DNA of 64,000 nt from Vicinamibacterales bacterium (GTDB lineage: Bacteria; Acidobacteriota; Vicinamibacteria; Vicinamibacterales; UBA823), in contig DASCOS010000004.1 of assembly GCA_036012125.1 (NCBI GenBank), positions 154,094 through 218,093 of the forward strand, written 5' to 3'. The notes below the pieces were generated by a model. It was not told the DNA's origin. It did not search any database and worked only from the letters and a program-made list of their open reading frames with translations. Shown piece by piece: positions 1,352 through 43,939 of this stretch (positions are counted from its first letter, which is position 1; each line of letters starts with the position of its first letter). A program made the position numbers and the translations under genes.

Positions 1352-1387
1352 AGCCTAGAATTATAACTCGATCATAAGGAGGGTAAT

Positions 1388-1852
1388 GTGGCCGAGCTCA
1401 TTCACACCAGCCGAATACGCTTAGAGAAGATTAAGGGTTCACTTCGGCACGCGTACGTCGAAAACTTTAAGGCCCCAATCCGCTTCGGTATTCATGGCGG
1501 CATCAAGAGGTTCTACGGTATCGAACCTGACGAGGAGTTGCCAGCCACCCTCGATCATCTAATTGCGGCGGTTGGTGGTTGACTGCTTGGCACCTTGGCC
1601 GGCGCACTGGAAGTGCGCCAGATCCCGTCTGGTGACGGCTGTCTCACGGCCGCCGTGGAAGGCGACATTGAAGCGGTCGACAAGATCCTGCGTATAACCG
1701 AGATCCGAGTTCGTTACACACTCAAGATTCCCGCAGGCACCCGCGCAGCGGCTGATCGTGCGCTGACAACTCACGAGAGTAAATGCCCGGCCGCCGTAAG
1801 CGTCCGTAGCTGTATTAAGATTGTGATCACAGCTGATGTGACAGAAGAATAG
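1388..1852 (+). CDS. OsmC/Ohr-family peroxiredoxin, candidate selenoprotein (in-frame UGA at 1580-1582 read as Sec)
   Basis: Track ORFs 1388..1582 and 1595..1852 are in the same frame, separated only by a TGA plus 4 sense codons. AGGAGG (1377-1382) lies 5 nt before the GTG start; the downstream piece has no RBS of its own. The joined product reads ...LDHLIAAVGG-U-LLGTLAGALEV...THESKCPAAVSV..., which is the two-Cys OsmC/Ohr layout with U at the first conserved Cys. Confidence 0.7.
1601..1619 (+). promoter_or_regulatory. SECIS-like stem-loop downstream of the OsmC UGA
   Basis: GGCGCAC-UGGAA-GUGCGCC forms a perfect 7-bp stem with a 5-nt G-containing loop. The stem starts 18 nt after the UGA, and the loop starts about 25 nt after it. 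This falls within the spacing I recall for bacterial SECIS elements. Confidence 0.5.
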
Positions 1853-15029: not shown

Positions 15030-16100
15030 TCAGTGTCCGAGCACACTCGTGATTGCGTCACGGTCGGGTGTTTGGAGGGGAAGGGTGACACCGTTTGCTT
15101 CAATCGTTACACCTGCCGCTGCTGGTCGCACTTCAGCGATTACGACTGCTGGAATGTTCTGCAACTCCAGTGCTGCGATAATTCGATCCGTATCGTTCCC
15201 AGGTGCACCGATCAGTAATGCACCCGACGCAATGAGCCGCATTGGATCCACTTTGAACGGGCGGCAAATAGCAGCGGTTTCTGGAAAAATCGGAACCTGG
15301 TCAGATCGAAGATGAAGACCGGTCGACGAGGCCGCAGCCAACTCGCAGAGTCCACCAATTAAACCGCCTTCCGTGGGGTCGTGCATGGCATGCACAGAAC
15401 CGACTTCAAGCGCGGTGCGAACAGCATCGACCACACTGATGCCGGGATCGAACAGAAACTGCTCAGCGCGGGCGAGCACATCGTCGGTTACCTGCCCACG
15501 AAGAACGTCACGCTTCTCGCGTGCCAGGAGGGCAGTGCCTTCGATGGCGACCCCTTGCGTGAGAATAATCTGATCGCCGACTTCTAGTCCGGTCTTTGCT
15601 ACGAGTCGGTCACGCGTGACTTCACCCAGCATCTGGCCAATTACGATCGGCCGATCGAGGCCAGTGGTAATCTCAGTGTGTCCACCGCAGACGGTTATTC
15701 CGAGGGATTGAGCAGTGTCGTGCACGTCCCTCATGATTCCGTCGATAAGTGTCTCGGTGGTGTTGTGTTCGGGCAAGAGCAGCACGACAGAAAGCCACCG
15801 CGGAGTGGCACCCATAACCGCGATATCGTTGGCGTTAACATGGACGGTATACCAGCCAATGCGATCCGTAGCAAAGGTGACCGGGTCGGTCGTGACAACG
15901 AGGCAACGGTCAGCAAATGTAATTACTGACGCGTCTTCACCCACCTTCGGTCCGATGATTACACGGGGATCCTCCCGGCGTAGCCCCGCAAGTAGAGTTC
16001 GGAGCTTGTCGGCGGGAAGTTTCCCAGGTTGAACGCGCGGAAATTGATTATCTGAGGGCACGGGGGCGCCGAGGGTAGCACGCGGTAGAAGACCGGTCAA
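15030..16100 (-). CDS. AIR-synthase-related (PurM/ThiL/HypE/SelD superfamily) protein of unknown specific function
   Basis: 356 aa. GEDASVITF...VTTDP...HVNANDIAVMGATPRWL...GGHTE...HDPTEGGL is the PurM-superfamily ATP-binding pattern. It has no SelD-type N-terminal Cys/Sec-Gly-x-Lys loop. Confidence 0.7.
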   Translation of the reverse strand: MTGLLPRATLGAPVPSDNQFPRVQPGKLPADKLRTLLAGLRREDPRVIIGPKVGEDASVITFADRCLVVTTDPVTFATDRIGWYTVHVNANDIAVMGATPRWLSVVLLLPEHNTTETLIDGIMRDVHDTAQSLGITVCGGHTEITTGLDRPIVIGQMLGEVTRDRLVAKTGLEVGDQIILTQGVAIEGTALLAREKRDVLRGQVTDDVLARAEQFLFDPGISVVDAVRTALEVGSVHAMHDPTEGGLIGGLCELAAASSTGLHLRSDQVPIFPETAAICRPFKVDPMRLIASGALLIGAPGNDTDRIIAALELQNIPAVVIAEVRPAAAGVTIEANGVTLPLQTPDRDAITSVLGH

Positions 16101-42557: not shown

Positions 42558-42581
42558 TTCCGCAAGAGAGGAATGAGTAGC

Positions 42582-42797
42582 ATGAATCAGATCGTCTACA
42601 TCTTCGGCAAAGACACGTGACCTTATACCACTGCTGCCCGTGAGGACTATGCCAAGCGGAACATTGAGGTCGATTATGTCAACGTTAAGGAGGACGCTGA
42701 CGGGTTGCGTCGCATGCTGGAGTACACTGGCGGTCGACGTAAGGTTCCAGTGATTGTTGAGAATGACACGGTCACGACAGGATTTGGCGGCACATGA
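42582..42797 (+). CDS. Glutaredoxin-like (YruB/NrdH-size) thioredoxin-fold protein, candidate selenoprotein (UGA at 42618-42620 read as Sec)
   Basis: Not in the ORF track. My own translation is MNQIVYIFGKDT-U-PYTTAAREDYAKRNIEVDYVNVKEDADGLRRMLEYTGGRRKVPVIVENDTVTTGFGGT*. U sits where small glutaredoxins have the first Cys of CPYC. The VPVI...GF cis-Pro/beta-strand block is conserved. The 58 codons after the TGA contain no usable start of their own. Confidence 0.6.
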
Positions 42798-42807
42798 GGG
42801 GTATGAT

Positions 42808-42832
42808 GGCTGCCGGTGGCAGCTTTATTATT
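42808..42832 (+). terminator. Intrinsic (rho-independent) terminator after the Grx-like gene
   Basis: GCUGCC-GGU-GGCAGC (42809-42823) followed by UUUAUUAUU. It starts 11 nt after the stop codon. Confidence 0.55.
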
Positions 42833-43138
42833 GGGCGCCGAAGGGATTAAACGGTGCGTGTCTCTGTCAGTCAAGATTGACAGCTGGCGCGCGCGGCACG
42901 ATAATTGCCGCTCGGAATCTCGGACCGTCGTAATTATCCTCAGTTGGGAGTCAGGCGCTTTTGTTCTTCAGTCGCATTTTTTCGATCCGCAAGGCGTCGT
43001 CGTTTACCCTGTTCACTCAGCATTAGTTCTTCCGCCTACGTCGTTACTCTTCTCAGTCATCTCATTCTGCTTCATAAGCTCGGGGTTCCACTTCCATTCT
43101 GTGCTAGTGAATCCCGGTTTGTTTCATGACGAGGTGGT

Positions 43139-43939
43139 ATGCACTATGAGCTGATTCCTGCGCACAACCCCGGGTCCTACACCGGGTCTGGTAACAATAC
43201 CTATCTCCTTAACGGAAAATCACCTGTGCTGATTGATGCGGGCACCGGTGATTCTCGGCATGTTACAGGCGTCGCCGACGCGTTAGTGCAGTCGCCGAGC
43301 ACTTCGCTAACGAAGGTTCTCGTGACTCATGGGCACGCCGACCACGCTTCCGGCATTAGCGCACTCATGACAAGGTGGCCAGAGGTTGTGGCCGCTAAGA
43401 TGCCTTGGCCGGAACGCGACGATCGCTATTCGGTGTTCTGGACTCCAATCGCCGACGGTGATTTGATCCCAGCCGGTGATACAACACTCCAGGCTGTGCA
43501 CACGCCAGGTCATGCGCCAGACCATCTGTGCTTCTTGGATAGCACTTCCAGGGTTTTATTTACTGGCGACCTTGTGGTTAGCGGAAGTACCGTGATGATT
43601 CCAGGAAGTTCCGGGGGCGACCTAGTCGCATATCTCGCGTCACTTCAGCGCGTGCTTTCGCTCAAGCCAACCCGGCTGCTCCCGGCGCATGGGCCCGCAA
43701 TTGACGATCCAGTAACTCTTGTGCGGCACTACCTTGATCATCGCCAATCGCGTGAAGATCAAATCTTGGCGGCAATCCGAGCCGGTATTGACACAGTGGA
43801 CGGGCTAGTGTCGCGTGTCTATGGGTTTCTGGAGCCGCAACTCATTCCGGCAGCTCATGAAAGCGTTTTGGCACATCTAAAGAAGCTCCGCGTCGAAGAT
43901 CGAATCCAAACCGACGCGAACCGTTGGACATCGACCTAA
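43139..43939 (+). CDS. MBL-fold metallo-hydrolase (LACTB2-like)
   Basis: 266 aa. VLVTHGHADHASG, HTPGHAPDH, and a winged-helix-like C-terminal part. Confidence 0.8.
   Translation: MHYELIPAHNPGSYTGSGNNTYLLNGKSPVLIDAGTGDSRHVTGVADALVQSPSTSLTKVLVTHGHADHASGISALMTRWPEVVAAKMPWPERDDRYSVFWTPIADGDLIPAGDTTLQAVHTPGHAPDHLCFLDSTSRVLFTGDLVVSGSTVMIPGSSGGDLVAYLASLQRVLSLKPTRLLPAHGPAIDDPVTLVRHYLDHRQSREDQILAAIRAGIDTVDGLVSRVYGFLEPQLIPAAHESVLAHLKKLRVEDRIQTDANRWTST

Follow-up and report, generated by a model that had tools for sequence, protein, structure and literature searches.

A glutaredoxin-fold gene of the UXX-star family with two probable selenocysteine codons in a marine acidobacterial genome

Within the 64-kb stretch of DNA that was analysed (referred to here as the window), the list of open reading frames contains no plus-strand ORF of at least 40 aa over positions 42582-42797, in agreement with the original prediction of an unannotated gene at this place. 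The start codon (ATG 42582) and the in-frame TGA at 42618-42620, which lies in the motif U-P-Y-T, were found where they had been predicted, and the translation, MNQIVYIFGKDT*PYTT...GFGGT*, is the same. The gene had been thought to end at 42797, with a TGA at 42795-42797. We interpret this latter TGA as a second selenocysteine (Sec) codon, and the feature as running to 42806 (Table 1). Positions 42795-42806 read TGA GGG GTA TGA, and the product of the complete frame is MNQIVYIFGKDT-U-PYTTAAREDYAKRNIEVDYVNVKEDADGLRRMLEYTGGRRKVPVIVENDTVTTGFGGT-U-GV, a protein of 74 residues ending in U-G-V. An alternative start codon, ATG 42573, abuts the ribosome-binding site and is absent from L001, a closely related locus described below, which reads ...GISSMNQ. 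It had also been stated that no internal start follows the first UGA. There is in fact an in-frame ATG (Met45, at 42714), though the ORF beginning there has only 27 codons. Taken together, 42582-42806 very probably encodes a 74-residue glutaredoxin-fold selenoprotein with two Sec residues, which is an ordinary member of the NCBIfam family NF041114. The original prediction is thus partly supported: it was right in calling a selenoprotein, and wrong about the gene end and the terminator.

Table 1. Features assigned to the two-Sec gene and its flanks (window coordinates; Sec and SECIS assignments are predictions)
Feature	Positions	Strand	Basis or remark
Ribosome-binding site GAGAGGA	42566-42572	+	Ends 9 nt upstream of ATG 42582; read directly
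Complete coding sequence, 74 codons and stop	42582-42806	+	NF041114 match; frame kept in 80 loci
UGA-1, predicted Sec13, motif U-P-Y-T (T-U-P-Y-T)	42618-42620	+	Position of the nucleophilic Cys of CxxC
Candidate SECIS for UGA-1, within the coding region	42632-42653	+	Loop CGUGA; family covariation
UGA-2, predicted Sec72, antepenultimate residue, corresponding to the U in UXX-star	42795-42797	+	Codon comparison
True stop, TGA	42804-42806	+	TGA, TAA and TAG all used by relatives
Predicted SECIS for UGA-2, 3' untranslated region	42808-42824	+	7-bp stem, covariation, spacing

Profile scores were computed with U written as C. The 74-residue product matches NF041114 ('UXX-star selenoprotein family 1') with 117.1 bits (cutoff 72), its residues 5-74 covering positions 1-70 of the 70-position profile. 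The 71-residue version, which ends before UGA-2, reaches 108.1 bits, its match being confined to positions 1-67 of the profile; adding U-G-V raises the score by 9 bits. With the glutaredoxin model of Pfam (PF00462), the 71-residue protein scores 39 bits (cutoff 22.9). These two matches bear out the earlier assignment to glutaredoxin-fold selenoproteins with Sec at the nucleophile of a CxxC-type motif, and they are also the outcome of the family search with the U-to-C sequence that had been proposed as a check, in which NrdH remained below its cutoff. The narrower placement in the NrdH/YruB type did not hold: NrdH (TIGR02194) scores 24.7 against a cutoff of 85.75, and YruB (TIGR02196) 37.0 against 88.55. 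The cutoff of TIGR02181 (GRX_bact, Grx3) is not reached either (34.6 bits versus 90), and the dithiol motif C-P-Y-C is not present in the protein, in which the motif is U-P-Y-T.

The gene had been presented as a candidate selenoprotein. As a candidate it is not new: it belongs to a curated selenoprotein family. NF041114 appears in a 2026 review (PMC13188914) as 'Distant Grx-like protein 1', with the motif UxxT and two Sec. The GOS paper which that review cites for the family gives 'Grx-like' in its main table only as UxxC, therefore the description 'UxxT, two Sec' rests on PMC13188914 and on the present data. The family, its motif and its two Sec are already on record, and the gene is low in novelty.

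A scan using one genome per species yielded 326 relatives, of which the best 80 loci were retained, and 81 sequences were compared. They were sampled from Acidobacteriota, Desulfobacterota, Methylomirabilota, Gemmatimonadota, Latescibacterota, Nitrospinota, Armatimonadota, Planctomycetota, Bacillota and other phyla. At site 1 the codon is TGA in 73 sequences, TGC in 6 and TGT in 2 (81 sequences, best 80 of 326 relatives), the pattern by which site 1 is classified, at the codon level, as a classical Sec/Cys pair. A homologous frame interrupted by TGA in 73 of 81 sequences is, as judged from this alignment, far beyond chance. The rest of the protein is under strong purifying selection in these 81 sequences from many phyla, and no frameshifts were seen. 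In L001 (PAWT01000036.1), a locus from a marine Acidobacteria MAG, 12.2 kb are collinear with the window at 95.3% identity, and both TGAs are present; as a separate assembly, it provides an independent check against sequencing error.

Site 2 behaves differently from the codon that follows three positions later. Among the best 80 of the 326 relatives, site 2 is TGA in 78 of 80 loci, with a single TCA and a single GGA, whereas the codon three further on is TGA in 32, TAA in 30 and TAG in 17, i.e. a stop of one kind or another in 79 of 80. Such a mixture of TGA, TAA and TAG indicates that the latter position acts as the real stop, unlike site 2, which is TGA only. Between UGA-2 and this stop lie two codons that specify Gly-Val in 55 of 80 sequences; elsewhere the first is Ala, Ser, Arg or Glu and the second Val or Ile, with Ala in one locus. 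Their third positions vary freely (entropy of 1.9 bits for Val and 1.5 bits for Gly) while Gly-Val is kept, which argues for selection at the protein level and hence for translation of these codons. Cys was found at site 2 neither in the 81 loci (best 80 of 326 relatives) nor in 82 close public protein clusters. In the same 82 clusters site 1 is Cys in 69, the proteins stopping at GFGGT, and Trp in 7, where TGA had been read with code 4/25. Tails of the form Cys-X-X-stop were found by a wider profile search only in a few distant relatives, namely P0153 (YCGI), P0179 (CAV) and P0207 (CFV).

Each of the two UGA codons is followed by a hairpin, and the one after UGA-2 is the stronger. It consists of the stem GGCUGCC/GGCAGCU, closed by the loop GGU (42815-42817) 17 nt after UGA-2, with a predicted energy of -10.5 kcal/mol, and its full sequence, GGCUGCC-GGU-GGCAGCU, is followed by UUAUUAUU. 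Bacterial SECIS elements are described by the bSECISearch model, in the form quoted in the Fig. 2 legend of PMC13188914, as a hairpin just past the UGA with a loop starting with G and then G/U, at a distance of 16-37 nt from UGA to loop; the hairpin at 42808-42824 agrees with this published model on all four of the points quoted there. It starts 1 nt past the stop at 42804-42806, which is too close for it to recode that TGA.

The hairpin is also conserved at this location, although not in sequence. A perfect stem of at least 7 bp, with its start 12-18 nt after UGA-2, is present in 56 of 75 distinct loci, compared with a frequency of 11% in dinucleotide shuffles. The loops in these 75 loci mostly start at +20 to +24 and read GGU, GUC, GGUC, GGC or GGA, and the stems are wholly different between lineages. 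In the 43 loci with 3-nt loops, compensatory changes occur in all eight pairs (8/8) and 96% of cells are paired, with the qualification that this alignment was ungapped and anchored on the loops of detected hairpins, which inflates the paired fraction, so that the fair control is the 11% shuffle frequency. Covariation in these 43 loci amounts to 1.01; shuffles give 0.21, and slid controls do not exceed 0.20. A T-rich tail follows the hairpin in only 8 of 75 loci, and TTTT in 2 of 75, which indicates that its conserved function is not intrinsic termination. On this comparative evidence, we assign the hairpin at 42808-42824 as the putative SECIS of UGA-2 and not mainly as a terminator. The original prediction had described it as a clean intrinsic terminator, and part of that claim stands: the hairpin with its tail UUAUUAUU is picked up by a terminator scan that uses a loose pattern, and a promoter-like site for the next gene lies at 42877-42905. 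The part that fails is its exclusiveness, as the element is conserved as a SECIS and most relatives lack the T-run. Given the U-rich stretch that follows it, the hairpin may act as a terminator as well in this particular genome.

The hairpin after UGA-1 had been noted from the start as weak, and it is indeed (-2.4 kcal/mol in the window). Its apical loop, CGUGA at 42639-42643, lies 18 nt after UGA-1; the closing pairs are C20-G28 and C21-G27, and the lower stem pairs columns 15-18 with 33-36. The upper stem has 2-3 bp in most members, and the energy in the window is between -2.4 and -7.0 kcal/mol, whereas the strict bSECIS model, as far as it is quoted, asks for at least 4 bp and for -7.5 kcal/mol or lower. 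The two energies belong to two registers: -2.4 kcal/mol to that with the CGUGA loop, and -7.0 kcal/mol to an alternative minimum-energy register with the loop AGGAC. The AGGAC register was rejected: 90% of it is paired across the family, yet its covariation does not exceed that of shuffles, for which reason the CGUGA register is preferred.

Conservation of the CGUGA register is evident at the family level. Its covariation is 0.202, compared with 0.112 in shuffles, and none of 500 shuffles reached the observed value. Pair 21-27 is CG in 51 sequences and UA in 13, the exchange proceeding via paired synonymous changes (GCC/GAG to GCU/GAA), and pairs 18-33 and 15-36 covary too. The Ala codon at +6 after UGA-1 is GCC or GCU. 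The Arg codon at +7 is CGU in 67 of 72 sequences, with a third-position entropy of 0.36 bit as against 1.2-1.9 at other four-fold sites. The loop bases G23 and U24, counted from UGA-1, occupy what we take to be the positions of the essential loop bases in the E. coli fdhF SECIS. Pair 21-27 together with G23 and U24 is retained in 65 of 73 Sec forms and in 1 of 8 Cys forms (Fisher p = 1.3e-5, for lineages that are not independent); the Cys forms mostly have CGC or CGA as the Arg codon after site 1. These data support a putative SECIS at UGA-1, in which the constraint on the RNA is weaker than in the UGA-2 hairpin but real across the family. RNAalifold predicted no pairs when applied to MAFFT alignments that span the first 45 nt downstream of either UGA; MAFFT scrambled the variable spacer at UGA-2, and the helix at UGA-1 is too short. 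In its place, pairs were counted explicitly, and one alignment in codon register without gaps and one anchored on the loops were used. A search of Rfam found nothing in this region, whether at gathering scores or at E values up to 10; neither hairpin is therefore covered by an Rfam family.

Three other explanations of the TGA codons can be set against a gene with two Sec residues. A glutaredoxin pseudogene in decay, or TGAs that stem from an error of sequencing or assembly, would explain why gene callers skip the locus and why public annotations of close relatives are truncated, as in the 55-residue 'glutaredoxin family protein' P0004. It is hardly conceivable, however, when TGAs occupy the same two codons in many phyla in a frame without frameshifts and under strong purifying selection, when the independent L001 assembly, at 95% identity, agrees, and when the protein matches a curated selenoprotein model over its full length. 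We attach equally little probability to a reassignment of TGA to Trp or Gly (codes 4/25) in place of selenocysteine. This is how some public pipelines came to place Trp at both positions (e.g. in P0001 and P0008), but the TGA codons align with Cys, not with Trp, of the homologues, and among the 50 longest open frames of the window, 20 end in TGA, including that of the thioesterase gene directly upstream, which indicates that the codon has not been reassigned in this genome.

The reading that remains closest to the original prediction, namely a single-Sec glutaredoxin of 71 residues that ends at TGA 42795-42797 and is followed by nothing other than an intrinsic terminator at 42808-42824, appears very unlikely. 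It would account for the terminator scan, which flags the hairpin and its tail UUAUUAUU, and for the promoter-like site of the next gene that follows, and it has in its favour that failed Sec insertion at UGA-2 would release a nearly complete product of just these 71 residues. It does not account for site 2 being TGA in 78 of 80 loci (best 80 of 326) when the codon three later uses TGA, TAA and TAG, nor for the retention of Gly-Val past UGA-2 despite synonymous variation. The curated profile extends over the last three residues, which increase the score from 108 to 117 bits. Moreover, the hairpin is conserved through covariation, yet a T-rich tail follows it in only 8 of 75 loci, and it matches the SECIS model in loop and spacing. 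We therefore retain the two-Sec gene as the preferred interpretation.

The structure of the protein was approached through an AlphaFold model of a close full-length homologue, P0025, which was aligned with 50 relatives. The model has a mean pLDDT of 83 and the order of elements E-H-E-H-E-E, without the usual last helix, and residues 72-74 fall below 50. Its best structural matches are glutaredoxins and NrdH (TM 0.72-0.77), and the best sequence matches among solved structures are glutaredoxins (E about 1e-7). According to the model, the protein is a minimal beta-alpha-beta-alpha-beta-beta glutaredoxin core. Thr stands in place of the second Cys of CxxC, and the second predicted Sec is located on a Gly-rich C-terminal tail.

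For the decoding, the conserved anatomy of the locus suggests the following. UGA-1 and UGA-2 would each be decoded as Sec by SelB and Sec-tRNA(Sec), directed by a downstream hairpin of its own: at UGA-1 a short hairpin within the coding region, presenting positions G23 and U24 in its CGUGA loop, and at UGA-2, three codons before the stop, the strong hairpin of the 3' UTR, with its 7-bp stem and GGU loop. As Thr replaces the second Cys of CxxC, Sec13 would be the attacking residue. Sec72, on the flexible Gly-rich tail, might then serve as its resolving partner and form an intramolecular diselenide with Sec13; in variants with Cys13, pairing with Sec72 would give a selenenylsulfide. Such an arrangement would resemble the C-terminal GCUG arm of thioredoxin reductase. 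The searchable literature yielded no protein-level evidence for Sec insertion in the NF041114 family.

We tentatively propose that Sec72 is irreplaceable and forms a diselenide with Sec13, and that one and the same hairpin serves as the UGA-2 SECIS and as a terminator in this genome. This combined proposal seems to us possible rather than probable. The irreplaceability of Sec72 is suggested because no Cys is seen at site 2 in the 81 loci and the 82 close protein clusters, while Sec13 toggles with Cys. If the diselenide exists, the protein would be among the smallest dedicated diselenide redox proteins, and if the hairpin has both functions, the supply of selenium would decide between a 71- and a 74-residue product. 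The same two-Sec gene could also be read otherwise, with the selenols acting not as a diselenide couple but as a pair of ligands for soft metals or metalloids (Hg, As, Cu), or as a carrier of persulfide or perselenide. Metal or other ligand binding has been suggested as an alternative role for the NF041114 family (PMC13188914). The presence of Thr instead of the resolving Cys of CxxC is compatible with such a role, and the fact that site 2 is never Cys in close relatives would fit selenium chemistry beyond simple disulfide exchange. On the other hand, the fold and the cis-Pro motif VPVI are typical of thiol-disulfide oxidoreductases, and there are no conserved adjoining genes for metal resistance or transport, the window having a thioesterase and an MBL hydrolase instead. 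We regard the ligand or carrier role as unlikely, though worth consideration, and keep the Sec13-Sec72 couple as our working proposal.

The genetic context gives no clue to the function. The neighbours in the window are ThiI, Nudix, Def, a ThyX-like gene, a 4HBT thioesterase, an MBL hydrolase and an M20 peptidase; those of the relatives vary from lineage to lineage and have housekeeping roles (PTS EI/HPr, SmpB, Ndk, endonuclease III), and no gene neighbour conserved across phyla was found among the compared loci. The largest 'cluster' of neighbours turned out to be a spurious antisense ORF over the gene itself. No selA, selB, selD or tRNA-Sec lies within the 64-kb window, whose sole tRNA is tRNA-Glu. 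An AIRS-family gene (15030-16100) was considered as SelD and rejected, since its score of 85.8 bits falls short of the SelD cutoff of 125, and it is about as similar to HypE as to ThiL. There is, however, a second TGA-interrupted gene in the window (1367-1849), probably the one that had earlier been counted as the first selenoprotein candidate. Its product is OsmC-like (42.8 bits with U as C) and contains the motif GG-U-LLGT, and its TGA is followed by an 8-bp hairpin with a GGA loop. This gene indirectly supports the use of Sec by the organism, and together with the gene at 42582 it points to selenocysteine use in this lineage of marine Acidobacteriota.

The value of the locus as a discovery is small, given the curated NCBI model of the family and its entry in the 2026 review (PMC13188914). 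Its practical use lies rather in annotation. The gene escapes standard gene callers altogether, the ORF list is blank here, and public records contain truncated 'glutaredoxin' versions of 55 to 72 residues or Trp at the Sec positions; whoever ends the frame at the TGA that directly follows GFGGT misses the second Sec. The gene might also serve as a teaching case in two respects: the true stop varies among TGA, TAA and TAG from species to species while the Sec codon stays TGA, and a hairpin with the appearance of a terminator can be a SECIS.

Compared with the NF041114 family as a whole, the gene shares the full-length match, the N-terminal UxxT, a Sec third from the C-terminus, a length of about 70 residues and the glutaredoxin fold, and we found no difference except for the U-rich tail after the UGA-2 hairpin, which is rare in relatives (8/75). 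UXX-star families 2 and 3 and the HUGP/GUXX-star fusion belong to the same superfamily (NF041212, 94.5 bits, cutoff 66) and share the C-terminal U-X-X-stop, but the protein remains below the cutoffs of NF041211 (54 versus 100), NF047338 (46 versus 97) and NF045501 (50 versus 325). Distant UXX-star relatives include Cys-X-X-stop forms, whereas none was seen among the close relatives of this gene.

With the classical dithiol glutaredoxins and the Sec-containing glutaredoxins of Clostridia, the protein has in common the fold, a redox motif that opens helix 1 and the cis-Pro 'VP'. The nearest solved structures are 7c10/7c12 cGrx1, 3grx Grx3 and 3ic4, and identity is only approximately 25-32%. The protein differs from these glutaredoxins in having UPYT instead of C/U-P-Y-C, and thus no second Cys in the motif, in lacking, according to the model, the C-terminal helix, and in carrying an extra predicted Sec on its C-terminal tail; it also remains below the cutoffs of all the named Grx, NrdH and YruB models. 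In comparison with the E. coli fdhF SECIS and the bacterial consensus, the putative UGA-2 element shares all criteria but lies wholly in the 3' UTR, and the UGA-1 candidate has the loop CGUGA at a spacing of 18 nt with an upper stem of only 2-3 bp in most members.

A parallel to the proposed mechanism is found outside the family. In the Gly-Cys-Sec-Gly arm of mammalian thioredoxin reductase, and in monothiol glutaredoxins with a resolving Cys after GG, the C-terminal segment is flexible and Gly-rich, and a redox-active Sec or Cys on such a segment can reach the active-site nucleophile. As with the thioredoxin reductase arm, the SECIS of the present gene would lie beyond the stop codon because the Sec is located at the very end of the protein. 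These systems differ from ours in family and size, and here the partner of the C-terminal Sec would be the Sec or Cys of a glutaredoxin fold within the same small chain.

The two Sec positions of the UXX-star gene, the glutaredoxin-like selenoprotein gene of the window, differ in how strictly Sec is kept. At site 2 (the C-terminal Sec72) no Cys was found in 81 loci, i.e. the window and the best 80 of 326 relatives, nor in the 82 protein clusters closely related to the gene. Site 1 (Sec13, in the UPYT motif), in contrast, alternates between Sec and Cys, and seven of the eight loci with Cys at site 1 retain the TGA at site 2. Among the public proteins P0001-P0231, Cys-X-X-stop tails are confined to a few distant relatives (P0153, P0179 and P0207).

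Proteins of this UXX-star family are mis-handled in public records, as seen in P0001, P0004, P0008 and P0047. P0004, a 55-residue "glutaredoxin family protein" present on 56 contigs, is N-terminally truncated. P0001 and P0008 were translated with code 4/25; they carry Trp in place of both Sec residues and continue beyond the stop. Two wider hits, P0089 and P0098, are likewise code-4/25 translations with Trp for Sec that run past the stop. The majority of the Cys forms in public records end at GFGGT.

SECIS-2, the 3' UTR hairpin assigned to the UGA of site 2, is directly followed in the window by the tail UUAUUAUU and is flagged by the terminator scan; further downstream, ahead of the MBL-hydrolase gene that starts at 43139, lies a promoter-like site. 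In this genome, then, the hairpin may serve as SECIS and terminator alike. Within the family such a T-rich tail is rare (8 of 75 distinct loci).

Features of the window discussed in this section
Feature	Position	Strand	Basis or remark
OsmC-like ORF with in-frame TGA at 1580-1582	1367-1849	+	Pfam PF02566
AIR-synthase-family protein, AIRS and AIRS_C domains	15030-16100	-	domain matches
ThyX-like (Thy1) protein, 546 residues	40457-42097	-	two matched stretches
Antisense ORF overlapping the UXX-star gene	42674-42874	-	equivalents at the same place in 38 loci
SECIS-2 hairpin with tail UUAUUAUU, terminator-like	42808-42832	+	terminator scan
Promoter-like site TTGACA-17-GATAAT	42877-42905		near-consensus, 11/12

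In an all-against-all comparison the antisense ORF forms one cluster over these 38 loci. The clustering is a by-product of sense-gene conservation and does not count as evidence of a second gene.

An OPT-family oligopeptide transporter gene lies directly 3' of the UXX-star gene in six Acidobacteriota loci (L022, L012 and four others), an adjacency not conserved beyond that lineage. ThyX proteins are usually about half as long as the ThyX-like protein of the window, whose size thus points to a tandem or fusion.

The AIR-synthase-family protein is about equally similar to HypE, ThiL and SelD, with every score below its cutoff (110 vs 252, 87 vs 184 and 86 vs 125, respectively). It is a PurM-like superfamily member without a narrower assignment, and on its SelD score was rejected as evidence of SelD.

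A second sign of Sec decoding by this genome is the OsmC-like ORF, which matches its Pfam family at 42.8 bits (U written as C). Its in-frame TGA falls in the motif AAVGG-U-LLGT and is followed, from +22, by the 8-bp hairpin GGCGCACU-GGA-AGUGCGCC. The ORF probably encodes an OsmC-like selenoprotein, a family that is already known.
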